Shown one piece after another: positions 1-64,000 of a stretch of DNA of 64,000 nt (its first letter is position 1; each line of letters opens with the position of its first letter). The notes under the pieces were generated by a model, which did not search any database, was not told the origin of the DNA, and worked only from the letters and a program-made list of their open reading frames with translations. The position numbers and the translations under genes were made by a program. Source of the stretch: Candidatus Saccharimonadota bacterium (GTDB lineage Bacteria; Patescibacteriota; Saccharimonadia; Saccharimonadales; JACDBH01); the NCBI GenBank assembly GCA_028289135.1, contig JAQGGW010000008.1:98385-162384 (forward strand), read 5' to 3'.

Positions 1-330
1 GAGTACGAAATGATTTATATGCAAACCCTTATGCACCGAGTTTTAGCAACTATATCACTTGACCCAACGACAGGCTCTAAAGAGCCGCTTGGCCTGCCGA
101 GGACACAGCTAACCAACCCTACCCTTCAGAAGGGTATTCAAACTTTCTTAGGAATTGCAGCGGCAGTTGCCCTGCTAATTATTGTTATATCGGCTTTTAG
201 AATGGTTATTTCACGCGGCAACCCGCAGGATATCGCTAAAGCTCGCGACGCGATTTTGTATGCATCCATTGGGCTGGTCATAACCATGATAGCCTTTAGT
301 ATAGTAACGTTTGTGATTGGACGGGTTTAA
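1..330 (+). CDS. VirB2/TrbC-like (T4SS-pilin-like) small membrane protein, paralog 1, probably 5'-partial
   Basis: Frame is open from nt 1 (first ATG at 10, no signal peptide visible). C-terminal TM-loop-TM hairpin (AAVALLIIVISAFRMVISRGNPQDIAKARDAILYASIGLVITMIAF) aligns with the conserved core of the four downstream paralogs. TAA at 328-330 abuts the next ATG. Confidence 0.6.
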   Translation, partial: EYEMIYMQTLMHRVLATISLDPTTGSKEPLGLPRTQLTNPTLQKGIQTFLGIAAAVALLIIVISAFRMVISRGNPQDIAKARDAILYASIGLVITMIAFSIVTFVIGRV

Positions 331-855
331 ATGCGCCGGTTATTTGTTGCTATCACTATCATGCTGTTTGGCCTGGCTGTATCGATGCCTCTAATAAGTG
401 CCCGAACTGTTTATGCTGCGGATTGCGCAGACGGATCGTCCTTTGATGCAAGCGGGCAATGCCCTTGCGCGGGCGGTGCTACGCTCGGCGCAGACAATAA
501 GTGCGTGTGCCCAAGTGGCAATTCTCCCGAAACAGATGGGACGTGTAGCGTAGCGCCTTTTGCGCAAGCATGCCTTCTCGGAGCTGCTACTGCATCTACC
601 TGTAAAACAGATCCTACTAAAAATCCTGTTTCCGGCAAGGACGGAGTTATATTTAAAGCTATTAACATATTCTCGTTTATTATTGGTGTAGCCTCTGTTG
701 TTATGGTGCTAGTTGGCGGGCTGCGGTACGTCATATCCAACGGTGATAGCAACAATATCGCAACAGCAAAAAACACCATTCTGTACGCTATTATTGGCAT
801 TGTCGTATTTTTGCTTTCCCGTGGAATAATTGTTTTTGTCGTTAATAAACTTTAG
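331..855 (+). CDS. VirB2/TrbC-like small membrane protein, paralog 2 (8-Cys variable region)
   Basis: Signal peptide MRRLFVAITIMLFGLAVSMPLISARTVYA. The variable segment has 8 Cys. Conserved hairpin follows: VGGLRYVISNGDSNNIATAKNTILYAIIGIVVF. Confidence 0.7.
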   Translation: MRRLFVAITIMLFGLAVSMPLISARTVYAADCADGSSFDASGQCPCAGGATLGADNKCVCPSGNSPETDGTCSVAPFAQACLLGAATASTCKTDPTKNPVSGKDGVIFKAINIFSFIIGVASVVMVLVGGLRYVISNGDSNNIATAKNTILYAIIGIVVFLLSRGIIVFVVNKL

Positions 856-867
856 GAGACTAAAAAT

Positions 868-1317
868 ATGTTAAAAAAACTAAAATATATTATCGCAGGC
901 CTTAGCCTAGCGATTATCCCTGCCCTTGCTGTAAGCTATGTTTCCGCGGATGCGGCTCAGGATTCGGTCTGCCAAGGCATTGGACTAGTAAGCTCCACTG
1001 GCGGCTGTGTTGAAGATGCAAGCTCTCCTTCTGTGGGCGGTACGGTGCATGCGGTTGTAACAATTCTTTCCTGGGTTGTTGGCGTTCTTTCGGTCATTAT
1101 GGTAATTGTCGGCGGCTTCAAATACATCACCTCCGGGGGTGATAGTACAAAAGTTGGCAGCGCCAAAAATACCATTCTCTACGCGGTTGTCGGCTTGGTG
1201 ATTGTTGCCATGGCTCAAGTAATTGTACGGTTCACTATTAATAAGACATCAGGTACAAATAACCCAGTGACTCCCGTATCTGCTCCCGTCACTCCTCCAT
1301 CGCAAACCCCGAGCTAA
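868..1317 (+). CDS. VirB2/TrbC-like small membrane protein, paralog 3 (Pro/Thr-rich C-tail)
   Basis: AGGAG RBS at 854-858. Signal peptide, 2 Cys, conserved GGFKYITSGGDSTKVGSAKNTILYAVVGLVIVAMAQVIVRF, and an extra tail NPVTPVSAPVTPPSQTPS. Confidence 0.75.
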   Translation: MLKKLKYIIAGLSLAIIPALAVSYVSADAAQDSVCQGIGLVSSTGGCVEDASSPSVGGTVHAVVTILSWVVGVLSVIMVIVGGFKYITSGGDSTKVGSAKNTILYAVVGLVIVAMAQVIVRFTINKTSGTNNPVTPVSAPVTPPSQTPS

Positions 1318-1382
1318 TAAGCGTATTTGCAAGGGGTCAGTCTTAATAGCGCTCTGGCAACATCCCTCAGCTGCCGAAAGGC

Positions 1383-1412
1383 TTGTATACGACCTCTGAA
1401 CTGTGCTATAAA
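1383..1412 (+). promoter_or_regulatory. sigma70-like promoter for paralogs 4-5
   Basis: TTGTAT (1383-1388), 18-nt spacer, extended -10 TGcTATAAA (1404-1412). AAGGAAA RBS precedes the ATG at 1445. Confidence 0.4.
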
Positions 1413-1444
1413 TAAACGTAAGTTAAAACAAGGAAATATTCACA

Positions 1445-1930
1445 ATGTTTAAAAAAATCAAAGATTCAATAATTCTAGTCGCAAGCATCGCTTTGTTCGC
1501 GGTTCCAGTACTCGTGCCCGTTACAGCGCATGCCGCTGCTGCATGCGCCACTGACCCAGCAACCGGTGCTGTAATCGTGCCACATAGTCCTGCTGACTGT
1601 ACGCCACCTACTGATATCCGAGGAAACCTTTGCGGTGGTGTTGACCTAAGCACTGACCCCAACGCCGCTAACTGTAATAATGTAGATGCTACAGGTGCAA
1701 GCAGCGCCAATGGCCTTATCTCTAACATCATCAACATCTTCTCTCTTGTAGTAGGTATCGTTGCTGTTCTAATGATCATCGTTGCAGGTTTCCGCTACAT
1801 TACCTCTGGTGGTAATGATGGCAATGTTGGTACGGCCAAGAATACTATTCTCTACGCTGTCATTGGCCTTGTTATCGTTGCTCTTGCCCAGATAATTGTC
1901 CGCTTCGTACTCAATAAAACAAAAGTATAG
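1445..1930 (+). CDS. VirB2/TrbC-like small membrane protein, paralog 4 (4-Cys variable region)
   Basis: Signal peptide ending VTAHA. 4 Cys. Conserved AGFRYITSGGNDGNVGTAKNTILYAVIGLVIVALAQIIVRFVLNK. Confidence 0.75.
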   Translation: MFKKIKDSIILVASIALFAVPVLVPVTAHAAAACATDPATGAVIVPHSPADCTPPTDIRGNLCGGVDLSTDPNAANCNNVDATGASSANGLISNIINIFSLVVGIVAVLMIIVAGFRYITSGGNDGNVGTAKNTILYAVIGLVIVALAQIIVRFVLNKTKV

Positions 1931-1950
1931 TCTAGGAGACTGTAACAGCT

Positions 1951-2355
1951 ATGTTAAAAAAAATCTTGCTTAGCATTTCTATCGTCCTCGCTGCAGCTAT
2001 GCCGCTTGCCTTTGCGGGCGGTGCGTACGCAGCAGAAGGTATCCAACAGAACCTTTGTGCTGGTGCCAACCTAAACGTAAATACCGACTGTAATAGCGGC
2101 GGCATTACCGATGCCGAGGCACAGCAGCGTATTAACGACATCTTACACAGCGTCATTAACCTGTTTTCGCTCGTTGTGGGCATCGTGTCGGTCATCATGA
2201 TCATCTTTGGCGGCCTTAAGTACATCACCTCCGGCGGTGACTCAGGCAACGTCGGCAACGCCAAAAACACCATACTCTATGCAATCATCGGTATCGTGAT
2301 CGTTGCCCTTGCCCAGTTCATCGTCAGATTCGTGTTAACAAAAATCGCCCAGTAG
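1951..2355 (+). CDS. VirB2/TrbC-like small membrane protein, paralog 5 (2-Cys variable region)
   Basis: AGGAG RBS upstream. Signal peptide ending GGAYA. 2 Cys. Conserved GGLKYITSGGDSGNVGNAKNTILYAIIGIVIVALAQFIVRFVLTK. Confidence 0.75.
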   Translation: MLKKILLSISIVLAAAMPLAFAGGAYAAEGIQQNLCAGANLNVNTDCNSGGITDAEAQQRINDILHSVINLFSLVVGIVSVIMIIFGGLKYITSGGDSGNVGNAKNTILYAIIGIVIVALAQFIVRFVLTKIAQ

Positions 2356-2375
2356 CAACTGACGCGTTCAAATTT

Positions 2376-2405
2376 AAAAAGGCTTCCCTCCCGGAAGCCT
2401 TTTTA
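2376..2405 (+). terminator. rho-independent terminator of the pilin-like array
   Basis: AAAAA, then GGCTTCC (2381-2387), loop CTCCC, GGAAGCC (2393-2399), then TTTTT. Confidence 0.8.
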
Positions 2406-2596
2406 AATACTTCGACTCCCAATTACGATTTTGGCCTATTACACCCAGAATCAAATTATTTTACGACCTAGTGGTTCGTTTGGGTTATGTCAGGCTGAGT
2501 CAGTTTGGCCAAGCGGTTAAATATTATTATGATTTCACTTTAGTGTGGGTCCTAGACTCGTTAGGATAGTGCAGCTTGGGATGAAAGCCGAGCACT

Positions 2597-2676: not shown

Positions 2677-3165
2677 CTACTGGATTTGAATCTTCTTGAC
2701 AGTATCTTGCTTAACCTTAGCAAAAGAAATAGTAAGTACGCCGTCCTTCAACATCGCTTCAATCTCTTCTTCCTTAACAGGAACAGGCAATGCAATGCTG
2801 CGGCTAAATTCGCCCCAGTAACATTCTTGGACAAAATAATTCTCGACGTCGTCTTCAGTTCCGGCGCTTAATGTGCCGTGAATACTGAGCGTATTGTCCG
2901 AGATACTAACATCTAGTTCGTTCTTGTTGACCCCTGCTGTGCGGGCTTTAACAACCAGCTTGTCTTTGGTTTCATAAACATCAACCGCCAACTGGCCTGG
3001 TACTGGTTCTTCGTCGTCCCAATCTGATGCAGTCGGCGCGTCGGCTTGGCCGTCGTCTGCCATCGGAGCATTCGAAGGCGCCATAGAAGTATCATCATCA
3101 CCTAAGAAGGCGGCTGTTAGCTCATCCTCCATCAAGAGGTCGTCATCCTGATTCCGTCGTGCCAT
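2677..3165 (-). CDS. Hsp20/alpha-crystallin family small heat-shock protein
   Basis: Alpha-crystallin domain LAVDVYETKDKLVVKARTAGVNKNELDVSISDNTLSIHG...GVLTISFAK after an acidic disordered N-terminus. Confidence 0.85.
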   Translation of the reverse strand: MARRNQDDDLLMEDELTAAFLGDDDTSMAPSNAPMADDGQADAPTASDWDDEEPVPGQLAVDVYETKDKLVVKARTAGVNKNELDVSISDNTLSIHGTLSAGTEDDVENYFVQECYWGEFSRSIALPVPVKEEEIEAMLKDGVLTISFAKVKQDTVKKIQIQ

Positions 3166-3301: not shown

Positions 3302-3973
3302 GTGCGTTTAATCGAACACTTTTTCAGCCTTTTAGCCCCTCACGACTGTATTAATTGCGGCCAAGAAGGTGCCCTTCTCTGTTCAGACTGTACTGTTAAA
3401 AAACTAGAACCCGTGCCTGGGCGGTGCTACAGGTGTTTTAGGCAGTCACTTAATTGTTCCACCTGCCCTGTTTGCCGCCATTATTCTGTACTCAAACACG
3501 TATGGGTACGCACGCAATATAACGAAACGGCGAAACAATTGGTGCACGAGCTTAAATTTAGCTTTGCCAAGGACGCCGCTCATAAAATAGCTAAAGAAAT
3601 ACAAACAACCCTTCCCTTACTTGCACCCGATACGATCATTGTACATATTCCCGCAGCCACTACACACGTCCGCCAGCGCGGTTTTGACCAGTCGGCCCTA
3701 ATTGCCCGCGAGCTTTCGTATTTAACTAGCCTCCCCCATATTCATGCTTTGAATAGGCTGGGCCAGCAACGCCAGGTCGGTGCAAGCGCTAAAACCCGTC
3801 AGCAACAGATGAAAAATGCCTTTCGTGCCGTTTCTAATCATGCGATTGAAGGTATGCAAGTGCTTTTGGTCGACGATGTATTAACAACTGGTTCGACCCT
3901 TGAAGCCGCTGCCCTAACCCTCCGGCGAGCAGGCGCAAAGTCAGTTTCGGCCGTTGTCTTTGCCCAGGCTTAG
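3302..3973 (+). CDS. comFC: ComF family protein (ComFC-like, PRTase fold)
   Basis: GTG start. N-terminal Cys-pair zinc-finger motifs (CINCG, CSDC, CYRC, CSTCPVC). C-terminal PRTase motif VLLVDDVLTTGSTL. Confidence 0.8.
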   Translation: MRLIEHFFSLLAPHDCINCGQEGALLCSDCTVKKLEPVPGRCYRCFRQSLNCSTCPVCRHYSVLKHVWVRTQYNETAKQLVHELKFSFAKDAAHKIAKEIQTTLPLLAPDTIIVHIPAATTHVRQRGFDQSALIARELSYLTSLPHIHALNRLGQQRQVGASAKTRQQQMKNAFRAVSNHAIEGMQVLLVDDVLTTGSTLEAAALTLRRAGAKSVSAVVFAQA

Positions 3974-4036: not shown

Positions 4037-4129
4037 GGAGGGGTACCCAAGTGGCTCAAGGGGACGGTTTGCTAAATCGTTAGGGGGGAGAAATCTCCCG
4101 CGAGAGTTCGAATCTCTCCTCCTCCGCCA
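4037..4129 (+). tRNA. tRNA-Ser(GCU), class II, CCA encoded
   Basis: Acceptor GGAGGGG/CTCCTCC. Anticodon stem ACGGT/ATCGT with loop TTGCTAA (anticodon 4071-4073). Long variable arm. T-arm GAGAG-TTCGAAT-CTCTC. Ends GCCA. Confidence 0.9.
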
Positions 4130-4170
4130 TCCTTCGTCGCCAACCTTTTTAAAAGGTTAGCCACGGAGGA
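4130..4170 (+). other. imperfect 16-bp hairpin between the two tRNA-Ser genes
   Basis: TCCTTCGTCGCCAACC (4130-4145) pairs with GGTTAGCCACGGAGGA (4155-4170), with 2 mismatches and 1 G-U. Possible processing or spacer element. Confidence 0.35.
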
Positions 4171-4187
4171 TGTTTACAATCATATAC

Positions 4188-4275
4188 GGAAGGGTCGCAT
4201 AGTGGTCGAGTGCACCGGTCTTGAAAACCGGAGACCTGAGAGGGTCCGAGGGTTCGAATCCCTCCTCTTCCGCCA
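4188..4275 (+). tRNA. tRNA-Ser(UGA), class II, CCA encoded
   Basis: Acceptor GGAAGGG/CTCTTCC. Anticodon stem CCGGT/ACCGG with loop CTTGAAA (anticodon 4222-4224). Long variable arm. T-arm GAGGG-TTCGAAT-CCCTC. Confidence 0.9.
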
Positions 4276-4279
4276 ATCT

Positions 4280-4318
4280 AAAATAGCCATGCTGCAAAGT
4301 ATGGCTATTTTAGTTTGG
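4280..4318 (+). terminator. hairpin terminator after the tRNA-Ser pair
   Basis: AAAATAGCCAT (4280-4290), 10-nt loop, ATGGCTATTTT (4301-4311), then a T-rich tail. Confidence 0.65.
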
Positions 4319-4324
4319 TACAAA

Positions 4325-4346
4325 GGTCGAATCCCTCCTCTTCCGC
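4325..4346 (+). repeat. direct copy of the 3' end of tRNA-Ser(UGA)
   Basis: GGTCGAATCCCTCCTCTTCCGC matches tRNA positions 4251-4273 except for one deleted T. The 19 nt at 4328-4346 are identical to 4255-4273. Confidence 0.8.
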
Positions 4347-4371
4347 TCTTTATAATTTTCTTTTTGAAAAA

Positions 4372-4380
4372 TGCTACAAT
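4372..4380 (+). promoter_or_regulatory. extended -10 box abutting the ATG at 4387 (leaderless candidate)
   Basis: TGcTACAAT, with only 6 nt before the ATG and no RBS. Confidence 0.45.
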
Positions 4381-4386
4381 AAGCGT

Positions 4387-4989
4387 ATGCAAGAAGAGGG
4401 TAATCAGGAGCAACAGGCGCAGCCAGATGCAGGCTGGGTTTTTAAGCAAGGGCCTCAGCAGTCTTCCCCTTTAGCGTCTCAAACTTCCTCATCGGCCACG
4501 TTGCCGGGCGTATCCATGACTACATCACCAGAAGATGCTGTTACCTGGAGTGCTTCGGAGTATGTCGGCCACCCCAAGAACGCTGGCTGGTATCTTATGC
4601 TCGCCGGGGCAACAGCTTCCGTAGGTGTTATCGTCTACTTTTTAACGCGTGATGTTGTCTCCACTGTAGTCATCGCCATCTTAGGCATTGTCGTCGGAGT
4701 CTTTGCGGCCCGTCAGCCACAAGTAATGGAGTATGCCTTGGACAGGTCAGGTATCCACCTTGGTAGCCGATTTTATCCCTATAATGTCTTCAAGACCTTT
4801 TCGGTAGCCGAAGATGGTGCATTCAGCCACGTTACCCTCTTGCCGCTCAAGCGGTTTTTGCCCCCAATAACCGTGCATTACTCTCCTGACGACGAAGAAA
4901 AAATCATCAAAACCCTGGCCGACTATCTCCCGTTTGAAGAGCATAAAAACGACGTCATCGAAAACTTCAGCCGCCGCGTCCGTTTCTAA
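4387..4989 (+). CDS. membrane protein of unknown function (2 TM, PH-like C-terminal region)
   Basis: Start moved from track 4315 (which overlaps the tRNA copy and terminator) to the in-frame ATG at 4387 (MQEEGNQ...). Disordered N-terminus, two hydrophobic helices, soluble C-terminus. Confidence 0.6.
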   Translation: MQEEGNQEQQAQPDAGWVFKQGPQQSSPLASQTSSSATLPGVSMTTSPEDAVTWSASEYVGHPKNAGWYLMLAGATASVGVIVYFLTRDVVSTVVIAILGIVVGVFAARQPQVMEYALDRSGIHLGSRFYPYNVFKTFSVAEDGAFSHVTLLPLKRFLPPITVHYSPDDEEKIIKTLADYLPFEEHKNDVIENFSRRVRF

Positions 4990-5070
4990 ATTTTTGACAG
5001 GATTTGCATGATATATATTCCTAAAACCTTGCAAGCAAGTTTTAGGGTACCGCTGCGCTATTAAGGAAAA

Positions 5071-5150
5071 CATGAATAGCCGGCGGCTATTCATGCCTAC
5101 GACCTCCAGCTGGAGGTCGACAGTGTTCGAATCCAGCCAGAAACAAACCA
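5071..5150 (+). other. palindrome-rich segment containing tRNA-Arg-derived fragments (candidate small RNA or integration scar)
   Basis: 11-bp perfect hairpin CATGAATAGCC-GGC-GGCTATTCATG (5071-5095). 20-nt perfect palindrome CGACCTCCAGCTGGAGGTCG (5100-5119). CCTACGACCTCCAG (5096-5109) is identical to 5211-5224 inside tRNA-Arg. A GTTCGAATCC T-loop-like box is present. The strong terminator at 5153-5184 follows. Confidence 0.4.
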
Positions 5151-5152
5151 AG

Positions 5153-5184
5153 AAAAAAGTCCCACCGAAAGGTGGGACTTTTTT
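5153..5184. terminator. bidirectional rho-independent terminator
   Basis: AAAAAA-GTCCCACC-GAAA-GGTGGGAC-TTTTTT. Lies immediately 3' of tRNA-Arg (minus) and of the 5071-5150 segment (plus). Confidence 0.8.
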
Positions 5185-5186
5185 CT

Positions 5187-5263
5187 TGGTGTACCCGACA
5201 GGATTTGAACCTACGACCTCCAGTACCGCAAACTGGCGCTCTATCCAGCTGAGCTACGGGTAC
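5187..5263 (-). tRNA. tRNA-Arg(GCG), CCA encoded
   Basis: Minus strand reads GTACCCG-TA-GCTC-AGCTGGATA-GAGC-G-CCAGT-TTGCGGT-ACTGG-AGGTC-GTAGG-TTCAAAT-CCTGT-CGGGTAC-A-CCA. The D-loop resembles Arg tRNAs. Anticodon is the reverse complement of 5227-5229. Confidence 0.8.
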
Positions 5264-5346
5264 AAAACAGAGGTAATTTTAGCATCTTTCTCTAGTAAAG
5301 GCTAGTCCTAATGGTTAATCGTAAGGTATAATTGCCTCTGTCCCAA

Positions 5347-5436
5347 GGAAGGGTCGCATAGTCCGGTCTAGTGCGCCGCTCTCGAAAAGCGGTAAGGCGC
5401 AAGCCTTCGAGAGTTCGAATCTCTCCCCTTCCGCCA
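5347..5436 (+). tRNA. tRNA-Ser(CGA), class II, CCA encoded
   Basis: Acceptor GGAAGGG/CCCTTCC. Anticodon stem CCGCT/AGCGG with loop CTCGAAA (anticodon 5383-5385). Long variable arm. TATAAT at 5327-5332 upstream. Confidence 0.9.
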
Positions 5437-5473: not shown

Positions 5474-6661
5474 TTAAAGCTGGATCTTGCGCGGCGGCCG
5501 CGGCGGCCGTGGTGGGCGTTGTTGCTGCGGCACTGGCGGAGCGCTTGGGACTAATGGGCGTGGTTCAGCAGGGGTCAGGTCTCTTGCGGGTGGTACATTA
5601 TTACTCATAGGAGCCTCATGAACAACTGGGATGTCTTTGTGCCGGTGATGGCGTTTAATTAATACTGCAACGACTTTTACGATGACGCCAACCACAATAT
5701 ATGCAACGGTAAAGATAAGCAGATACCGCTCGACGTCCGTCAAGATTACCCGCACAAGATCAACGCCAAGCTTTTGATGTGAATCAAGCCCTCCCGGCAA
5801 GCTTGCGAGCCGTTTTGTACCCCAGTTAAAGAAGTAGCGTAACCCGGCATAGATAATGAGCAGCCCAAACCCAATAGTGAGGAAGATATTTCCAACCCGG
5901 TGCATTCCTTGCAAGCGTTTTTTACTCAAGAAAATAATGGCGAGGGATAATAAAAGCGTCGTAATGCCAAGCCCTATTGGCAAAAAGCCACCGAGCTTAT
6001 AAGCTTTTCGGGCCGCGACCAGTTTACTGTCGCTCGTAATCGGTATTTTCTTTCCGCTTTGAGAAACCATAATGTCACTACCAAGCACAACCGGTGTTTT
6101 AAAGAGTTTCTGCCCCGCAACGTAGTCATGTGCCATCGAAGCTACTTTGTCGGCGCTTACGCCAGCAGGTAAACAAGTAGCGGCCAATGGGTCGACCGGA
6201 CTGTTGCCATCCACTGCCCCGCACTTAGGCAGGCCGGCGGAACGGGTTTTGGCGTAAGCGGTTAAACCGTCCACTATCTGGGTTTTGATAGGGTTAAGGT
6301 CCAGCTTAAACATAAGATCTTGGTCCGAGCTGCCCAGCCACTGGTAGATGCTACCAATAAATGAATCTACCGAGTTTTTAACAAAATCACTCGAGAGTGC
6401 GTTTTTAACCACCGCCTTTACATTAGGGTCAGAAAAAGGCAGTCCCTCACCCCCGTCTTTTACGGTAGTTTTCTCTATATTTTCAAGCGCAATATCAGCC
6501 GCTTGCGAGTAAAAATTACTCCTATCCAGCCACCCAGTTACCGCCTGCCGGTTGCGTATAGTCGAGGCGCTAATATTGGTCCAAGCGAACCCAATCAAAA
6601 CCGTACCCAGCAATCCTCCTAAGAACCCTAGGAGCATTTTTCTCAAAACATTCATAAGCAT
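5474..6661 (-). CDS. multi-pass membrane protein with Pro-rich cytoplasmic tail, function unknown
   Basis: N-terminal TM, about 210-aa extracytoplasmic region, 3-4 further TM helices. Tail is PPVPQQQRPPRPPRPPRK. Confidence 0.6.
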   Translation of the reverse strand: MLMNVLRKMLLGFLGGLLGTVLIGFAWTNISASTIRNRQAVTGWLDRSNFYSQAADIALENIEKTTVKDGGEGLPFSDPNVKAVVKNALSSDFVKNSVDSFIGSIYQWLGSSDQDLMFKLDLNPIKTQIVDGLTAYAKTRSAGLPKCGAVDGNSPVDPLAATCLPAGVSADKVASMAHDYVAGQKLFKTPVVLGSDIMVSQSGKKIPITSDSKLVAARKAYKLGGFLPIGLGITTLLLSLAIIFLSKKRLQGMHRVGNIFLTIGFGLLIIYAGLRYFFNWGTKRLASLPGGLDSHQKLGVDLVRVILTDVERYLLIFTVAYIVVGVIVKVVAVLIKRHHRHKDIPVVHEAPMSNNVPPARDLTPAEPRPLVPSAPPVPQQQRPPRPPRPPRKIQL

Positions 6662-16108: not shown

Positions 16109-18103
16109 ATGGCACTTTACCCTCTCTCATACGTAAAAAAAGAGATAGCTTCTATGCTCCAGCAAATCGGGCCACAAATTACGGACGATGTAGAAGGCAA
16201 AGACTATCCAAATGGCCTTGGCTCTCCTCAGGAGAGAAGTAATTATACGCAGTCGATGATAAAAAGGGTTAACTCTGCTACATCGGTATCGCAATTGGTC
16301 GGATTCATAAATGGGTTCAATACCGGCGATAAAAAACAGTTGATTGCACTGGCACAAAGTAAAGATACCTGGGCGGATCAGTTTAGTGGAAAGCCAATAA
16401 TCCCATTACCAGCAACTACACTTGCTCCAGCTTCGCAAACTCGTGATGAACATTCAGTTTTTAGTGGATCACCAGCTTCCGCAGCAAGCACTACACCATC
16501 AAACCAGAGTAATGGAGTCACTAGTAATATACCTACACAACCAGACCCTGGACGAATAGCGACTAAAGTTGCGGACTCTATTAACTGGCATGGGCTGTTT
16601 GGTGCATACCAAGATGAATCCCCGCAAGTTATGATGGACCAGTTGTGGAGTAATTATCAGGAATCTGCTAAAGGGGATTTCAGTGGTGCGGAAAGGCAAG
16701 GCTTCCGAGACAGTATTAACGAATTTGTAACTAAACTTAAGAGCAAAGGTATAACTGTAACGCACCCACCTTTCGCAGGGTTTGATACCGGCAAAGACCA
16801 TGACCAGCCCGTCTGGAGTCCAGCTGGCACTACGTCGACACCGGTACCATCTACAAATGACCGTGATCACGATCAAGTCACGTGGTCGGGTTCTGGTGCT
16901 GCTACACCCGCAGCTAACCCGGATAGTAACCCCGATGGAATTGGGAATACCCCGGGCGGTTCCCTTACAGTAGAGCCTCCAGCAACTTCACCAGAAATTG
17001 CTGCGGCAATCGATGAAGCAAATAAGCAGTTAGCAGCTGCTGGAATTACCGCGACTATTACGGATCCTACCTCTGTTCAAAATGTCCGTGACCAGTTATT
17101 CCTACAAATTACGGCAGCTAAAAACGCGGGCGGTACGGCAGACTATGCTGGCGCGCTGAGCAACTGGGATAGTGCTTTGTACTCAAAAGGAATTAGCTTT
17201 GTCCAAAACCATAAAATCAAAAATCCAAAGCCTCCCGTCATTGCCCCGCCCGTCACAACCGTAGATACGGCGACGGCCGCCGCGGCTGGTGCTGCCGCAA
17301 CTCCAGCCGTAACACCATCCGCCTCCGCCCCTGCCAGCCACTTCTTCACCCTCATGCAGGCAGACGGTGACCCAGCTGTATATATGCTTAACAACCGCGG
17401 TGAACGGTTCCATGTTACTCCCAACCTAAAAAACGAAATGATTGCTGGCGGTACATGGTACGATCCACCGCTAACAACTGCAGCCGACCTAAATTCACAC
17501 CCACTCCGCTATGAAGTTAATACGCTTCATAATGTTGAGAGTATTAACAATCCACCAATTGCTGGAAATTTCATGCTAATTAGAGGCTCAGGCGGCGCCG
17601 AAACCGATAACAGTAAGCTTATTGGCAACAGCAATGCTGTCTATGCAGTTGATACTAACGGCAAGAAGTTCCATGTTACAGAATCGGCATATAATGAACT
17701 AGTAAATGAAAGCGGCGGTACGCCGCCGGCTGTTGGCATTGTTGATCAAAGTTCGGTTGATGCCACACCAGTTAGCGGCGCGCTTGCTGTTAACCCTGCT
17801 GGCGGAGTTCAAACAACAACCGACCAGATTATGGACCAGGCTCTTGCTTCGGCTATGAATGTCTTAGGCGGCAGTCCAAGTACAGATAGTGGACAAGCTG
17901 CTGCTAGCGCCGCACCTGCCGCTGCAGCTGTACCCGACCCAGGAAGCGTCGTCTATACAGACGGTCCATTTGCAGGCTACACCGTAGACCAAGTTAAAAC
18001 CTTTAGCGCCGGAGTAAATGCTGGCGGAAGCTTTAGTAGCGGTGACTCCTCTGGAATTCCAGCTGGTGTTCCACCAATGCCAGGCTATACCAATCCTCAG
18101 TAA
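16109..18103 (+). CDS. repeat-containing protein of unknown function, paralog B (no signal peptide)
   Basis: Unique N-terminus of about 390 aa rich in Ser/Thr/Pro/Ala. Then the shared SHFFTLMQADGDP... module and one DPGSVVYTDGPFAGYTVDQVKTF copy. Ends PPMPGYTNPQ, as in paralog A. Confidence 0.75.
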   Translation: MALYPLSYVKKEIASMLQQIGPQITDDVEGKDYPNGLGSPQERSNYTQSMIKRVNSATSVSQLVGFINGFNTGDKKQLIALAQSKDTWADQFSGKPIIPLPATTLAPASQTRDEHSVFSGSPASAASTTPSNQSNGVTSNIPTQPDPGRIATKVADSINWHGLFGAYQDESPQVMMDQLWSNYQESAKGDFSGAERQGFRDSINEFVTKLKSKGITVTHPPFAGFDTGKDHDQPVWSPAGTTSTPVPSTNDRDHDQVTWSGSGAATPAANPDSNPDGIGNTPGGSLTVEPPATSPEIAAAIDEANKQLAAAGITATITDPTSVQNVRDQLFLQITAAKNAGGTADYAGALSNWDSALYSKGISFVQNHKIKNPKPPVIAPPVTTVDTATAAAAGAAATPAVTPSASAPASHFFTLMQADGDPAVYMLNNRGERFHVTPNLKNEMIAGGTWYDPPLTTAADLNSHPLRYEVNTLHNVESINNPPIAGNFMLIRGSGGAETDNSKLIGNSNAVYAVDTNGKKFHVTESAYNELVNESGGTPPAVGIVDQSSVDATPVSGALAVNPAGGVQTTTDQIMDQALASAMNVLGGSPSTDSGQAAASAAPAAAAVPDPGSVVYTDGPFAGYTVDQVKTFSAGVNAGGSFSSGDSSGIPAGVPPMPGYTNPQ

Positions 18104-22938: not shown

Positions 22939-23916
22939 TCAACTCTGGGTTTGGGCGTAGGTACCGGTTTCGCTGTTTCGGTCCATGTAGTTGGTGTACC
23001 AGCTGTAGTTGGTGCCTAGCAGTTTGGTGGCTAGCTCGATGCCTAGGTCGGCGGTTTTACCTTCGTCGTCGTTTACGGGGTTATATTCCACGACATCGAT
23101 GCCAACGACATTACAGTTTTTGCCAATATATTCGGTGATGGCGGCAATTTCGCGGTAGGTGTAGCCGCCGCGGCTCGGGATGCCGACACCTGGGGCGTAG
23201 GTGACATCAATGCAGTCTAGGTCCAGGCTGACCCAGATGTTGGGGACTCTTTTTTGGAGGTCGTCGATCATGGCAATCAGGGGTGCCAGGCCGTCTTTGA
23301 GGAAGTCGAACATGGTAAAACAGGCTAGGTTTTCGCGCGCAATCAGGTCAATCTCGGCTTGGTCAAAGTCGCTACCGCCGGCGTGGAGGAGGTTTTCTTT
23401 CTTAAGTTTGGCGCCTTGGCCGTAAACGTCTATAAGTTCGTCGCCGCCAAAGCCCATAAGGGAAGCGACGTGCATACCGTGGATGTTATGGCTAATGCTG
23501 ACATCGGGCGTGTTCATATCGCCGTGAGCGTCTAAGTAGATCAGGCCAATCTGGTCCGTGCCGCCAACTGCTGCTGCCGCGCCCGAAAAAGCACCGAGGT
23601 TAATTGAATGGTCTCCTCCAATAATTACCGGTCTTTTGCCATTCTTTATCGATTCATCAACCATTTTCGCGGCTTGTTCGTTTATCCGCACAATTTCGGC
23701 GGCATATGGCTTGAGCGGATCGCCAGGTTCAAGCTGGGAACGGTCAGTGCAGGGCAGGTCGCCCATATCTTCCACGGATAATCCAGCGTGCTGGAACTTC
23801 TCAACAATTTTACGTTTGCGAAAGGCGCTTGGGCCAATGTCCACCCCAAGTGACTCAGCGCCAAGATCAAGGGGGATGCCGATTAAAGTTACGTCGTTAG
23901 AAGGAGTTTGATTCAT
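22939..23916 (-). CDS. arginase/ureohydrolase family protein (arginase-like)
   Basis: Start moved to ATG 23916 (MNQTPSNDVTLIGIP...). Mn-binding motifs GGDHSI, DAHGDMNTP and SLDLDCIDVTYAPGVG. TGcTACAAT lies 7 nt upstream of the ATG. Confidence 0.85.
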   Translation of the reverse strand: MNQTPSNDVTLIGIPLDLGAESLGVDIGPSAFRKRKIVEKFQHAGLSVEDMGDLPCTDRSQLEPGDPLKPYAAEIVRINEQAAKMVDESIKNGKRPVIIGGDHSINLGAFSGAAAAVGGTDQIGLIYLDAHGDMNTPDVSISHNIHGMHVASLMGFGGDELIDVYGQGAKLKKENLLHAGGSDFDQAEIDLIARENLACFTMFDFLKDGLAPLIAMIDDLQKRVPNIWVSLDLDCIDVTYAPGVGIPSRGGYTYREIAAITEYIGKNCNVVGIDVVEYNPVNDDEGKTADLGIELATKLLGTNYSWYTNYMDRNSETGTYAQTQS

Positions 23917-24018
23917 ACTTAAAATTGTAGCATGGCAGTGATCTTGAAATCTTAAACATTGATTAATACAGGTTTTTAGAGCTGGTACAATAGTTATCAG
24001 TAAATCAAGGAGGGTTCG

Positions 24019-25365
24019 ATGACTGACTTTGCCGGAATCTTTAAAGCTTATGATGTGCGTGGAAAAGTGGGGACGGACCTTACCCCAGAATCTGTTGAGA
24101 TAATTGGGCGGGCGTATGGTGACTGGCTGCCAACGGATGGTGCGGTGGCTGTGGGCCGGGATATGCGCCCAGACAGTGCGGCGCTGGCGGCTGGCGTTAT
24201 TGCCGGGCTTAAAAAACAGGGCAGGGACGTTATTGATATCGGTGAAGTTACTAGCGACATGATCTATTTTGCAGTTGGGCACCTAAACCTTGCCGGTGGG
24301 GCAATGGTAACGGCCAGCCACAACCCAGGTGAGTACAACGGTATTAAGTTTTGCCGCGAAGAAGCTAAGCCAATTGGCGAAGAGTCAGGTCTGTACGAAA
24401 TCCGTGATGCGGCTATTGCGGGGACGTTTGCCGACAAGGCAGAGGGCAGCTCAAAAGAACAGGACATTGTTGAAGACTGGATCCAGCATGTTTTAAGCTT
24501 TATTAACGCCGCGGAACTCAAGCCAATTAAGCTGGCGGTGGACGCGGGCAATGGCATGGGCGGCAAGATTTTCCCTGAGCTGGAGCCATATGTGCCCTGG
24601 GAAGTTACCGAGCTTTATTTTGAGCTGGATGGGACATTTCCTAACCACATTGCCAACCCGTTGGAGCCTAAAAACTTAGTGGATCTCCAAAAATGCATTA
24701 AAGACACTGGTTCAGACGCTGGTATTGCTTTTGACGGTGATGGCGATCGGGCAGTGTTGATTGATGAAAATGGAGTAGCTTTAAGCGGTACAGTATTAAC
24801 AGCCATCTTGGCACGTCACTTTTTGAAAGATAACCCAGGCGCCACAATTTTGTGCAACGCCATCTGTGGACGGGCAGCTGCCAAGGCTGTTGAAGCGGCC
24901 GGCGGCAAGGTGCAGCGGACACGCGTTGGGCATTCGTTTATAAAAGGCGACATGCGCAAATACAATGCGGTTTTTGCGGGCGAACACAGCGGGCATTATT
25001 ATTTTAAGAACAACTTTATGGCTGATTCTGGGCTAATTGCGGCCGTTATTGGACTGTATGTTGCAAGCTTAAGTGGTAAAACACTTTCTGAGCTAGCAGA
25101 AGAATTCCGCAACCTGTATTTTGCGATTCCAGAGACAAACTTTGAAGTTGCCGACAAAATGGCGATGCAGAAAAAGATTGCTGAGGCGTTTAAAGACGGG
25201 GAACAAGACTGGCTCGATGGCCTGACGGTAAATTATCCTGGCGGCTGGTTTAATGTCCGACCAAGCAATACCGAGCCTTTGCTGCGCCTAAATGCCGAGT
25301 GGAACAGCCAGGCCGAGCTTGATAGCATTGTCGAAAAAGTCCAAGGCTTGATCGCTTCAGCTTAA
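24019..25365 (+). CDS. phosphomannomutase/phosphoglucomutase (alpha-D-phosphohexomutase)
   Basis: Active site TASHNPGEYNG, Mg loop FDGDGDR, sugar loop GEHSGH. AGGAGG RBS. TGgTACAAT at 23983-23991. Confidence 0.9.
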   Translation: MTDFAGIFKAYDVRGKVGTDLTPESVEIIGRAYGDWLPTDGAVAVGRDMRPDSAALAAGVIAGLKKQGRDVIDIGEVTSDMIYFAVGHLNLAGGAMVTASHNPGEYNGIKFCREEAKPIGEESGLYEIRDAAIAGTFADKAEGSSKEQDIVEDWIQHVLSFINAAELKPIKLAVDAGNGMGGKIFPELEPYVPWEVTELYFELDGTFPNHIANPLEPKNLVDLQKCIKDTGSDAGIAFDGDGDRAVLIDENGVALSGTVLTAILARHFLKDNPGATILCNAICGRAAAKAVEAAGGKVQRTRVGHSFIKGDMRKYNAVFAGEHSGHYYFKNNFMADSGLIAAVIGLYVASLSGKTLSELAEEFRNLYFAIPETNFEVADKMAMQKKIAEAFKDGEQDWLDGLTVNYPGGWFNVRPSNTEPLLRLNAEWNSQAELDSIVEKVQGLIASA

Positions 25366-32652: not shown

Positions 32653-32742
32653 GGAGAGGTCGCATAGTGGCCTAGTGCGCCGCCTTGGAAAGGCGGTAAG
32701 CCCGCAAGGGTTTCGGGGGTTCAAATCCCCCCCTCTCCGCCA
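32653..32742 (+). tRNA. tRNA-Ser(GGA), class II, CCA encoded
   Basis: Acceptor GGAGAGG/CCTCTCC. Anticodon stem CCGCC/GGCGG with loop TTGGAAA (anticodon 32687-32689). Long variable arm. T-arm GGGGG-TTCAAAT-CCCCC. TATAAT at 32625-32630. Confidence 0.9.
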
Positions 32743-61323: not shown

Positions 61324-62202
61324 ATGCCAGAGTTACCAGAGGTCGAAACAGTAAAACGCGGTTTGCGCCGCTTAATCGTGGGCAAAACTATTCAAGCTGA
61401 AACGCACAATAACGCAAAAAGTTTCCCCAATCCGCCTGGCGATGTGAAGGCGTTTTTGGTAGGCGCTAAAGTAAAAGATGTTCGGCGCCGGGCCAAGGTG
61501 CTATTAATTGATCTGAGCACCGGCTACACTTTAGTAATACATCTAAAAATGACTGGCCAAATGGTTTACCGCGGCAAAGAAGTTTTTGGGGCAGGGCATC
61601 CCAACGACAGCCTTATTGGCAAGCTCCCGGACAAATCAACACGCGTAGGTCTAACTTTTACAGACAATTCCCATCTGTTTTTTAATGACCAGCGCAAATT
61701 TGGCTGGATGCGTTTAATGCCCACGACTGAAGTACCCAACACTGAATTTATGAAAAAAGTCGGCCCGGAGCCGTTAGAAGACGCATTTACGCCTAAAATC
61801 TTTATCCAAAGAATCCGCAGGCGCGCCAACACCACGATAAAAGCTGCAATATTGGACCAAACAGTCTTGGCAGGAATCGGTAACATCTATGCCGACGAAA
61901 GCCTTTGGGGAGCCAAAATCCACCCGGCAGAACGAGTTAAAGATGTGCCGGACAGCAAGCTAAAAACCCTCCACAAGGAGATACGTTTTGTTTTAAACCT
62001 GTCGATTGAAAAAGGCGGCTCAACAGATAGAAATTACGTTAATGCCGAAGGCAAAAAGGGCAGTTACATCGACTTTGCCCGTGTTTTTAGGCAGGAAGGC
62101 AAAGACTGTCCGCGCCACCCCGGCGTTACGATCATTAAAACCCGTGTGGCAGGCCGCGGCACCCACACCTGCCCAGTTTGCCAGGTATTAAAGCTCGCTT
62201 AA
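61324..62202 (+). CDS. mutM: formamidopyrimidine-DNA glycosylase
   Basis: MPELPEVETV N-terminus, H2TH region, C-terminal zinc finger CPRH...CPVCQ. Confidence 0.93.
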   Translation: MPELPEVETVKRGLRRLIVGKTIQAETHNNAKSFPNPPGDVKAFLVGAKVKDVRRRAKVLLIDLSTGYTLVIHLKMTGQMVYRGKEVFGAGHPNDSLIGKLPDKSTRVGLTFTDNSHLFFNDQRKFGWMRLMPTTEVPNTEFMKKVGPEPLEDAFTPKIFIQRIRRRANTTIKAAILDQTVLAGIGNIYADESLWGAKIHPAERVKDVPDSKLKTLHKEIRFVLNLSIEKGGSTDRNYVNAEGKKGSYIDFARVFRQEGKDCPRHPGVTIIKTRVAGRGTHTCPVCQVLKLA

Positions 62203-64000
62203 GTCGCGCAGCAGTTCGTGAACGTGCTGGACATCTTTAATCCTAAATCGGGCTGCAGTTTTACCGCGCCCGACTTTTACAGAATATCCAGTGCGGGGCA
62301 TTGCCCTAAACATATCTTCGTCAGTGTAATCGTCGCCAATAGCCAAAATAAAATCGTGATGCGGCCTTAAGATCCGGCCAATAGTTGTCCCTTTTACCAG
62401 CTCTACAGGTTTTATCTCAAGTATTTTGTGCCCGCTATGCATAACCAGGCCGTATTTTTCCAGGGCTGGGCGCAATGCTTGACGCAAGATAACAATGTTT
62501 TTCTGGGCGTGGTAGGGCGATGCGTTGCGGTAATGCCAAACAAGAGCGTAATCTTTTTCTTCAACAAATGCGCCTGGAGTTTGGGCAGCGTATTTCTCCA
62601 GAGCCAATTTTAGAGGTACTTTCCATAACGTTGATGACTTGATCATTTCTTTCCATTCGCCGTTTCGCAGCTTCATGCTCGCGCCGTGTTCAGCCACCAG
62701 AACTACCGGCATATTCCCAAACCATTTTTGCAGTTCTTTTTGTGACCGTCCGCTAATAATAACAACTTCAGTTTTTGGGTCTTTGCTCAGGCTGCGCAAA
62801 AGTTCCCGTTGGTTTTTGTCGGGGCGGGCAGCGCTGGGGTCATTTACGAAAGTTGCCAATGTACCGTCATAATCAAGCATAATAAGGCGCTTTTTAGAGC
62901 GCGCAAAATGGTGCACAGCTTTATCATAAGTTTTGCCCGCTAGCTGTTTTGCGCCAACCTGAACCGTTGCAGGCTGTTCAAGCGTTTCCATAAATGTCTC
63001 CACCCAGTCATGGATCGTGTGGGTAGAAAGCTGCTTTTGCATGCGGCTAAGCCTTGGTTTAAGCTCGCTTTTTGGCATTGTAAGGGCTTTGGTCAGGCCT
63101 TTTACCAATGTACTTGGACGTTTTGGATTAACTAGCACGGCGTCGAGCAGCTCCTCGGCCGCCCCGGCGGTTTTGCTCAAAACCAGCACGCCGTTGCTGT
63201 TGCTGGCTATGTATTCTTTTGCCACCAGGTTCATGCCGTCTTTAACAGGGGCCACAAATGCTACATCGGCCACCTGGTACATGGCGCTTAACTCATCGAA
63301 AGGTACAGTTTTATGCATGTATTCAATAGGTTTCCAACGCGGCGTACCAAAAGACTCATTAATCTCAACCACCAGCGCTTCAACCTGTGCGCGTAAATCT
63401 TGGTAAGCTTTTATTTCGCCGCGGGTTGGGATGGCAAGCATGAGCATGACGACTTTCTTATGCAGCTGCGGGTTTTTCTTTAAAAGGGTTTTATACGCCG
63501 TAAGCCGCTCCACAAAGCCCTTGGTAATATCAAGCCGGTCGACTGTTACGATAACTTTGTGGTGTTTATGTTTACGCCTTAGTTTGCGGACAGCTTTTCT
63601 GACTTTGCGTGACTTATTGGCTTCGGCAAACTTGGCATAGTCGATGCCAATGGGGAAGTCGGCAACCTTAATAACGCGGTCGTTTAAGATGATCTGGCCC
63701 TCTGTCACTGTGCCAACATCAAGCTCGCTGCAGGTATCCAAAAAGTTTTGGACATAAGATGGCACATGGAACCCGACTACATCAGAGCCGAGCAAACCTT
63801 TTATAAGCTGTGAGCTTTCGGATAATTCCGCAAAGCGGTTGTTATCGGGGAAAGGGATATGCAAGAAAAAGCCAACCGAGAGTTTGGGGCTCTGTTCGCG
63901 CAGCATTTTTGGCACTAGCATTAGCTGGTAGTCGTGCACCCAGACATTACTGTCCGGCTTTACTTGCCCCAGTACCGCAGTTGTAAAAATATTATTTACT
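62188..64000 (-). CDS. otsA: fused trehalose-6-phosphate synthase/phosphatase (OtsA-OtsB), 5'-partial at window edge
   Basis: The frame stays open upstream of the track start to nt 63999 (...VNNIFTTAVLGQVKPDSNVWVHDYQLMLVP, the GT20 signature). The C-terminal HAD-type TPP domain has LIMLDYDGTLATF and GDDYTDEDMF. Overlaps the mutM 3' end by 15 nt. Confidence 0.85.
   Translation of the reverse strand, partial: VNNIFTTAVLGQVKPDSNVWVHDYQLMLVPKMLREQSPKLSVGFFLHIPFPDNNRFAELSESSQLIKGLLGSDVVGFHVPSYVQNFLDTCSELDVGTVTEGQIILNDRVIKVADFPIGIDYAKFAEANKSRKVRKAVRKLRRKHKHHKVIVTVDRLDITKGFVERLTAYKTLLKKNPQLHKKVVMLMLAIPTRGEIKAYQDLRAQVEALVVEINESFGTPRWKPIEYMHKTVPFDELSAMYQVADVAFVAPVKDGMNLVAKEYIASNSNGVLVLSKTAGAAEELLDAVLVNPKRPSTLVKGLTKALTMPKSELKPRLSRMQKQLSTHTIHDWVETFMETLEQPATVQVGAKQLAGKTYDKAVHHFARSKKRLIMLDYDGTLATFVNDPSAARPDKNQRELLRSLSKDPKTEVVIISGRSQKELQKWFGNMPVVLVAEHGASMKLRNGEWKEMIKSSTLWKVPLKLALEKYAAQTPGAFVEEKDYALVWHYRNASPYHAQKNIVILRQALRPALEKYGLVMHSGHKILEIKPVELVKGTTIGRILRPHHDFILAIGDDYTDEDMFRAMPRTGYSVKVGRGKTAARFRIKDVQHVHELLRDLSEL

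Follow-up and report, generated by a model that had tools for sequence, protein, structure and literature searches.

Saccharibacteria are obligate epibionts with tiny genomes, and it may be asked why such an organism should carry a row of small, divergent genes for pilin-like membrane proteins, to which machinery these proteins belong, and whether they are alternatives to one another or parts of a single assembly. The question is raised by a stretch of 64,000 nucleotides from a Candidatus Saccharimonadota bacterium (contig JAQGGW010000008.1, positions 98,385 to 162,384; hereafter the window), at the left end of which a first-pass annotation had recognised five consecutive genes on one strand and had proposed that they encode pilins of the VirB2/TrbC type, associated with type IV secretion systems (T4SSs). 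The analysis presented here leads us to conclude, with considerable confidence, that these are the downstream five genes of a seven-gene VirB2-like pilin operon, belonging to a chromosomal, monoderm-type (MPF-FATA-related) T4SS in the metagenome-assembled genome of an uncultured member of Candidatus Saccharibacteria (TM7, Patescibacteria). The array is an orthologous copy of a Saccharibacterial T4SS pilin array that has already been described and is nothing new in kind, and the window confirms that such an array is recognisable from raw sequence. Its residual interest lies in regularities of organisation, which point to a heteromeric assembly of fixed composition with one conserved major subunit.

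Family membership of the pilins and linkage to T4SS genes

The five genes lie on the plus strand at the coordinates collected in Table 1, and the array continues past the 5' edge of the window, as had been supposed. A Logan metagenome contig (L084), which is 100% identical to the left end of the window over 4087 nt and extends leftwards from it, holds two more pilin genes, making seven in all. We label these A to G in gene order, so that the five window genes are C to G and the two upstream genes are A and B, with products of 228 and 163 aa. The contig was found by way of gene G and the VirB6-like protein described below; exact-sequence look-ups of C and D showed that neither is on record. Gene C is complete and uncut by the window edge, its open reading frame (ORF) allowing no upstream extension, and the start of D abuts the stop codon of C.

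All five window proteins pass the Pfam model PF18895 (T4SS_pilin; gathering score 26.6 bits), with scores for C to G of 45.9, 33.2, 42.9, 54.0 and 55.7 bits. Of the upstream pair, A scores 30.7 bits, above the cutoff, and B falls just below it at 25.6. These matches are not a chance pattern. The TrbC/VirB2 model PF04956 (cutoff 27.9) is passed by F with 32.2 bits, missed by G by 0.1 bit (27.8) and missed more clearly by E (22.3), while C and D give no match. The NCBIfam model NF045849 (Mbov_0395 family pilin-like conjugal transfer protein; cutoff 40) is passed by C only, with 42.1 bits, the other six pilins scoring 19.9-30.1. The G/FTLIE prepilin motif of class III signal peptides is present in none of the seven N-termini. 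The assignment to T4SS pilins of the VirB2/TrbC type, and not to the PilA type, is supported by these scores, by the missing prepilin motif and by the T4SS genes upstream (below). G has 5670 homologues at E <= 1e-5. A tblastn search with F led to a gene on a Pontibacillus megaplasmid, annotated as a Mbov_0395 family pilin-like conjugal transfer protein, which heads a Gram-positive T4SS cluster that also encodes a cell-wall hydrolase and a CD1110-type VirB4; a comparable search of plasmids with C gave no match. The Pontibacillus match agrees with a published VirB4 phylogeny, in which the Patescibacterial system stands next to the MPF-FATA class (PMC12102498), and with the description of the Gram-positive PrgF as a functional VirB2-like pilus subunit (bioRxiv 10.64898/2025.12.18.695078).

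Hydropathy plots show two C-terminal hydrophobic helices and a short joining loop in each of the five window proteins. Signal peptides were judged by eye from the same plots, together with AxA-type sites read in the sequence, and by this standard D to G, and six of the seven pilins overall, begin with a hydrophobic segment that leads into an AxA-like site. The layout originally described for all five, a signal peptide followed by a variable region and a core, therefore appears to hold for D to G and fails for C, which has no N-terminal hydrophobic segment. An AlphaFold model of G, built on 71 sequences, consists of a signal-peptide helix, a disordered stretch and a hairpin of two helices (residues 54-93 and 98-133) with a 4-residue loop, the block-mean predicted local distance difference test score being 83-94 over most of the hairpin.

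The first-pass annotation overstated the likeness of the cores when it called them nearly identical. Over a 72-aa core, identity reaches 61-69% only among E, F and G; it is 43-49% between D and these three, and 25-38% between C and the other four window genes. The loop carries the motif R/K-Y-I-T-S-G-G-D ... A-K-N, and the residues invariant across all seven paralogs are S, G and I only, with the S and G forming an S-x-G loop core. Full-length identity between paralogs is 15-52%, which is within the published range for Patescibacterial arrays (mean 25%, maximum 54% within an array; PMC12102498). The N-terminal regions had been considered unrelated. Pairwise comparison against shuffled sequences agrees with this for every pair (z < 2.3) except F and G (z = 4.4), but D to G have in common a Cys-loop motif, C-x-G-x(2,3)-L-x(4-14)-C, directly ahead of the core; in E it reads CQGIGLVSSTGGC. 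Six of the seven pilins possess a Cys-containing ectodomain of ~27-120 aa.

The first-pass annotation saw no VirB4, VirB6 or VirD4 in the window, expected any machinery to lie upstream, and named a lack of pilin-family matches together with a lack of T4SS ATPase or channel genes as one outcome that would count against it. Pilin matches and T4SS genes were both found. Upstream of the array, on the same contig, a divergent operon opens with a gene for a 148-aa protein and continues with those for a VirB6-like protein (1305 aa), two further proteins (528 and 509 aa), a PrgI-domain protein of 400 aa, a TrsD-like protein of 338 aa and the N-terminus of VirB4, which starts ~10 kb upstream of the first pilin gene. 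The VirB6-like protein has a large N-terminal region of extracellular appearance and is 100% identical to an NCBI protein of Candidatus Saccharibacteria bacterium (locus tag JWO47_989). The 400-aa protein contains a PrgI (VirB3-like) domain (38.7 bits), and the 338-aa protein matches TrsD and the N-terminal part of VirB4 models. The fragment at the contig end comprises the first 146 aa of VirB4 and is 68% identical (E = 9e-74) to the start of the 641-aa VirB4 of a relative, L008, which scores 356.7 bits with NCBIfam NF045971 (VirB4-like conjugal transfer ATPase, CD1110 family; cutoff 325) and so passes it. A full VirB4 of ~635-641 aa is present in all four relatives tested (L008, L016, L057 and L078). 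In relatives the upstream operon runs from a small protein through the VirB6-like protein, the PrgI-domain protein and a protein of ~320 aa to a VirB4 of ~635 aa, and a single unrelated protein of ~390-480 aa takes the place of the 528- and 509-aa pair. These two proteins have no counterpart among Pfam or NCBIfam families, nor does BLAST find either in the other 80 loci analysed below; the 148-aa protein likewise gave no family in the Pfam and NCBIfam scans. No relaxase or coupling protein is present in the T4SS locus, and VirB5, VirB7, VirB9 and VirB10 were not seen in it.

Table 1. Features of the pilin array and of the T4SS genes upstream of it. Positions are those of the window, or of the Logan contig where L084 is given.
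Feature	Position	Strand	Description
Pilin paralog C (gene 1, third of seven)	10-330	+	106 aa; no signal peptide, no Cys; barely more than the two-helix hairpin
Pilin paralog D (gene 2)	331-855	+	174 aa; putative signal peptide, 73-aa ectodomain with 8 Cys, hairpin core
Pilin paralog E (gene 3)	868-1317	+	149 aa; putative signal peptide, 2-Cys loop, hairpin core, 22-aa Pro/Thr-rich C-terminal tail
Intergenic gap	1318-1444	+	127 nt; largest in the array, ahead of the last two pilin genes F and G
Pilin paralog F (gene 4)	1445-1930	+	161 aa; putative signal peptide, 56-aa ectodomain with 4 Cys, hairpin core
Pilin paralog G (gene 5)	1951-2355	+	134 aa; last gene, most conserved member
Intrinsic-terminator-like hairpin	2372-2408	+	closes the pilin operon; stem GGCUUCC/GGAAGCC between an A tract and a U tract
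VirB6-like protein	L084 5785-9702		upstream of window; 1305 aa; precomputed PF19590 TrbL_3 match
528- and 509-aa proteins	L084 9755-13007		between the VirB6-like and PrgI-domain genes

Organisation and divergence across Saccharimonadales

To place the locus among its relatives, one genome per GTDB species was scanned. At least 573 matching stretches were obtained, and the best 80 loci, nearly all from metagenome-assembled genomes of Saccharibacteria or Saccharimonadales, were analysed. In 70 of the 80 there are 6-9 pilin genes on one strand, usually six or seven, and most of the remainder are cut by a contig end; the counts of gene order, spacing and cysteines that follow refer to these 70 arrays. 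The neighbours are also conserved, a homologue of the VirB6-like protein being present in 56 of the 80 loci, Hsp20 in 76 and a ComF/GntX-like phosphoribosyltransferase in 66. This comparison marks the locus as an old part of the chromosome that has stayed syntenic throughout the order, rather than a mobile element. An integrative and conjugative element was considered and rejected, given the housekeeping flanks, the Hsp20/ComF synteny and the finding that relaxase, coupling-protein and integrase families are absent among the 34 larger window ORFs scanned, several of which match no family at all.

The order of the genes is regular. When each gene was classified by its best BLAST hit among the seven pilins of the source genome, the first was of type A and the second of type B in every array in which the start is present, and the third was of type C in most arrays, usually encoding ~87-116 aa and mostly lacking a signal peptide. 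After these come three to six genes of types D, E, F and G, which are closely related to one another and occur mixed. Each of the first four genes overlaps its neighbour or lies directly beside it, the median spacings at the three junctions being -4, -1 and -1 nt. The widest interval between genes stands before the last pilin gene in 44 of the 70 arrays and before the last two in 21 (together 65 of 70), the latter being the arrangement seen in the window. For each of the last three pilin genes, 68-69 of the 70 arrays have an even, non-zero number of cysteines ahead of the core; for the first gene 59 do so, and the third gene is free of cysteine in 53. Even cysteine counts fit disulfide-bonded, extracytoplasmic ectodomains. 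The fixed A-B-C order, the third member without a signal peptide, the pattern of overlaps, the even-cysteine rule and the extreme conservation of the last pilin were not found by term searches of the array literature consulted.

The gap between E and F may contain an internal promoter. A consensus promoter scan of the array gave counts equal to the shuffle expectation, with no site in the 127-nt gap, and the RNA fold of the gap is unremarkable (z = 0.29). The terminator-like hairpin downstream of G (fold of 2368-2410) has an energy of -21.2 kcal/mol (z = -8.0), and none of 200 shuffled sequences folds as well.

Rates of change differ markedly between the parts of these proteins. Set against a relative with housekeeping proteins at 82-91% identity, the source genome has pilin cores at 84-95% and ectodomains of A to F at only 25-62%, whereas G keeps 97% in its ectodomain. 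For the VirB6-like protein the identity to the orthologue in the same relative falls to 41%. When a second, more distant relative is included, so that housekeeping proteins span 75-91%, the ectodomain of G is still 97% and its core 95-97% identical, both parts being at 97% in the more distant of the two. Across the order, median identities are 17-33% for ectodomains, 40-69% for cores and 75% for Hsp20. G also stands apart at synonymous sites, its synonymous divergence (pS) from relative L082 being 0.32-0.43, compared with 0.57-0.99 for the six preceding pilin genes. This low value could reflect recent recombination, or codons strongly constrained because the gene is highly expressed.

Proposed assembly and function, and competing explanations

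A plausible course of assembly can be sketched by analogy with solved VirB2 pili, in which the loop lines the lumen and the termini are outside (bioRxiv 10.64898/2025.12.18.695078). Six of the seven pilins would be inserted by Sec and would lose the signal peptide at the AxA site. The hairpins would then be stored in the membrane with the conserved loop facing the cytoplasm, until VirB4 and the VirB6-like platform extract them and stack them into a tube. In such a tube the loop would line the lumen, the termini would be outside and the N-terminal, disulfide-stapled ectodomains would coat the exterior. Gene organisation and rates of divergence suggest a division of labour among the subunits, with A, B, C and D as co-translated accessory subunits and the last one or two genes (here F and G), behind the gap, expressed separately. 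G is a candidate for the major structural pilin, and the fast-evolving ectodomains of A to F and of the VirB6-like protein may face the host bacterium.

The first-pass annotation had suggested an interchangeable or mixed surface filament with variable tips. We read the array as a fixed kit rather than a set of interchangeable variants, in which A, B and C would be ancient specialised subunits whose translation is coupled to that of the following gene; a mixed assembly of fixed composition would account for the conserved gene order and the coupled translation better than a choice among interchangeable pilins. A more elaborate version can be offered tentatively, as a possibility that we would not yet call probable. 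In it the ordered A, B and C would be joined by an expandable set of canonical pilins, with G as a near-invariant major subunit, and the ectodomains of the others, together with that of the VirB6-like protein, would set the host range. Within this version the Cys-free C, lacking a signal peptide, would resemble an ancestral Gram-positive subunit of the PrgF type. The comparative regularities provide handles for work in Southlakia epibionticum, both for distinguishing major from accessory paralogs and for examining the ectodomains as possible determinants of host specificity.

What such an assembly would do may be considered from the composition of the locus. The role of the Saccharibacterial T4SS was called 'completely unknown' in a recent perspective (PMC11665869). 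We consider that it is most likely a conduit for contact or transport between the epibiont and its host cell, rather than a conjugation pilus, because the locus contains no relaxase or coupling protein and because in S. epibionticum the T4SS is essential and competence is not (PMC10633639, PMC12857230).

Several points weigh against these conclusions. We know of no filament seen for any Saccharibacterial T4SS, and polymerisation, cleavage sites, disulfides and stoichiometry are matters that we infer. VirB4 is known in the source genome only as the 146-aa N-terminal fragment at the contig end. Scanning the 1305-aa VirB6-like protein against Pfam and NCBIfam returned no family, so that its label draws on the precomputed PF19590 match, on where its gene lies in the operon and on a weak TrbL match in an orthologue (E = 0.009), and is the least secure of the upstream assignments. 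The case for G as the major pilin is built on its conservation and gene position, together with a Shine-Dalgarno-like site and its low synonymous divergence. A comparison of dN/dS between variable and conserved parts had been suggested at the outset, but synonymous sites are saturated (pS ~0.7-0.8), and only nonsynonymous divergence (dN) can be compared; against the closest long relative it is 0.38 in the variable parts and 0.07 in the cores. With this saturation, positive selection on the ectodomains is neither claimed nor excluded. To these points must be added the structural searches. A Foldseek search of the PDB with the model of G gave no significant match but only unrelated helical hairpins, with a best E of 1.4, and reached a solved conjugation pilin, that of Aeropyrum (8dfu), only weakly, at E = 9.7; a profile search of PDB sequences yielded nothing relevant, its only matches, to OSTC and to cytochrome bd subunit II, being at E > 1. 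Since a fold as plain as a helical hairpin does not discriminate, we have not used the Foldseek result either way.

Among the alternatives, the one that survives best, although we judge it unlikely, holds that the pilins are membrane-embedded or cell-wall-spanning parts of the T4SS channel, perhaps a short stalk or collar on VirB6, which never form an extended pilus. No pilus has been observed for this system and monoderm T4SSs were long thought to be pilus-free; moreover, the hairpin would make a good integral membrane anchor and the ectodomains could sit on the cell surface. This explanation must contend with the homology to pilus-forming VirB2/TrbC proteins and with the experimental support for extrusion of a tube by the Gram-positive PrgF class (bioRxiv 10.64898/2025.12.18.695078). 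It must also contend with the S-x-G loop core, whose invariance in seven paralogs is as expected for a common packing geometry.

It is less probable still that the seven paralogs stand in for one another as the major pilin, one or a few being in use at any time, so as to vary the exposed surface in response to host strains or defences. This is close to the interchangeable filament of the first-pass annotation. A proposal of this kind has been made for the VirB2 paralog arrays of Bartonella and Anaplasma and is the interpretation offered in the survey of Patescibacterial arrays (PMC12102498). It accounts well for ectodomains that differ completely between paralogs and diverge far faster than the cores between close relatives, and for the variation from three to six in the number of D-G type genes between species. 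If the genes were alternatives, however, there would be little reason for the first three types to keep one sequence in practically all arrays of Saccharimonadales, nor for one member to lack a signal peptide entirely, and the overlapping or abutting of the first four genes implies co-translation, not choice. Invertible promoters, recombination repeats and silent cassettes were not seen in passing, although no dedicated search was made for them. Finally, the pilin genes are reported to be essential in S. epibionticum (PMC10633639), which is hard to square with redundancy.

A third possibility, that the pilins are Sec-secreted effectors delivered to the host, follows the reading of the TM7x genes as 'six putative effector genes' or a 'Sec secreted array', and we regard it as very improbable. 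Six of the seven have putative signal peptides, and a TM7x transcriptome preprint treats neighbouring small genes as effectors, three of which rise in stable symbiosis (bioRxiv 10.1101/2022.03.25.485537). Yet all members close with a pair of strongly hydrophobic helices and score above the cutoff of the T4SS pilin model or just short of it, and a soluble effector would not retain a membrane hairpin in conserved form as its other parts diverged.

The idea that these are ordinary small inner-membrane proteins unrelated to secretion, for instance fragments of cytochrome bd oxidase subunit II, is suggested by the names of many homologues and by weak matches to Pfam Cyt_bd_oxida_II (PF02322), but is effectively refuted, since those matches are partial (~60-90 residues of a 302-position model) and below the cutoff (14.6-22.2 bits, cutoff 35.6), the pilin models pass and T4SS genes are always adjacent. 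The names in question, 'cytochrome bd-type quinol oxidase subunit 2' and 'heme/copper-type cytochrome/quinol oxidase subunit 2', are automatic ones given by the Joint Genome Institute to many homologues of G and are, to judge from these scores, a misannotation driven by weak transmembrane similarity. Intact cytochrome bd oxidase subunit II was rejected as an identity; the members of that family are of ~300-380 aa with 8-9 transmembrane helices, and the window proteins are of 106-174 aa.

Described relatives of the array and neighbouring genes

The fixed-kit reading of a T4SS pilin operon may be set beside what has been described in Saccharibacteria. An 'array of small signal-peptide proteins' was reported in TM7x in 2018 (McLean et al., bioRxiv 10.1101/258137). 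In 2023 the array SEML1_0006-0019 of S. epibionticum ML1 was found by transposon sequencing (Tn-seq) to be essential for epibiotic growth (Wang et al., PMC10633639), and a 2025 review highlights the six VirB2-like pilins of this organism (PMC12857230). A 2025 survey lists 441 arrays of 2-11 pilin genes in 383 Patescibacteria assemblies, especially of Saccharimonadia (Quinonero-Coronel et al., PMC12102498). It defines such arrays as at least two tandem VirB2-like genes on a Patescibacteria chromosome in association with virB4, and the present locus has each of these attributes. The arrays of S. epibionticum and TM7x resemble the one studied here in phylum and class, in their tandem, divergent VirB2-like genes, in their chromosomal location and in the lack of a relaxase. 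They also have the same neighbours, namely VirB6-like, PrgI/VirB3, TrsD and VirB4 genes, with a GntX/ComF-like gene downstream. A difference from S. epibionticum is that there are seven pilin genes here and six reported there.

Resemblance to other systems is more distant. PrgF of the Enterococcus plasmid pCF10 and the Mbov_0395 family of Mycoplasma, of Firmicute integrative and conjugative elements and of plasmids are, like the array proteins, small two-helix proteins with a short charged loop, and their genes likewise lie beside the VirB6-like, PrgI and CD1110-type VirB4 genes of monoderm T4SSs; the Pontibacillus gene matched by F shares this gene order. Those systems, however, are conjugative and possess a single copy with little or no ectodomain, whereas here there are seven paralogs in an apparently non-conjugative setting. 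The diderm pilins VirB2, TrbC and TraA share the long signal peptide, the hydrophobic two-helix hairpin and the dependence on VirB4 and VirB6, and the multi-copy virB2 genes of Bartonella and Anaplasma offer a parallel tandem expansion with divergent exposed parts (as cited in PMC12102498). In contrast to diderm VirB2, for which PF04956 is the model, F alone of the five window genes passes it, the organism is a monoderm, the disulfide-rich ectodomains are much larger and no sign of cyclisation or acetylation is seen. With PilA-type pilins the likeness is limited to the word 'pilin' and an N-terminal hydrophobic segment, for these have a class III signal peptide, a PilD-type processing site, and another fold and assembly machinery. 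Separate loci for type IV pili are present in Saccharibacteria (PMC10633639).

Apart from the array, the window consists of chromosomal housekeeping genes, including those for ValRS, ArgRS, GroEL, DnaG, sigma-70, PolA, a Mur ligase and TsaD, with five tRNAs. Directly after the array come Hsp20 (2677-3165, minus strand) and the ComFC/GntX-like phosphoribosyltransferase (3302-3973, plus strand), which has a Cys-rich N-terminus; a GntX neighbour of the array was described in TM7x work by McLean et al. (bioRxiv 10.1101/258137). A cluster of four tRNAs (4037-5436), comprising Ser-GCT, Ser-TGA, Arg-GCG on the minus strand and Ser-CGA, lies 1.7 kb downstream of the array, and with the fifth, Ser-GGA (32653-32742), the window has four different serine isoacceptors. 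At 5474-6661 on the minus strand is a gene for a 395-aa multi-pass membrane protein with a Pro/Arg-rich C-terminus, which has no Pfam match and is syntenic in relatives. It is 65% and 42% identical in relatives whose housekeeping proteins are at 75-91%, and by this measure would be another fast-evolving envelope protein near the T4SS locus.

Cumulative GC skew over positions 1-24000 of the window reaches its minimum at ~6-20 kb and rises steadily afterwards, so that the region may be origin-proximal, a position described for the T4SS loci of some Patescibacteria; the window ORFs scanned include no dnaA. A 664-aa ORF at 16109-18103 (plus strand) has no Pfam family at E <= 0.01. An arginase-family ORF (22939-24282, minus strand) and a phosphoglucomutase ORF (24019-25365, plus strand) overlap by 264 nt; the real start of the former is probably internal, as its Pfam match begins at residue 130. 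Finally, this reduced Saccharibacterial genome encodes, at 62188-63939 on the minus strand, a fusion of trehalose-6-phosphate synthase and phosphatase (Glyco_transf_20 plus Trehalose_PPase), in which the Glyco_transf_20 match starts at model position 147.

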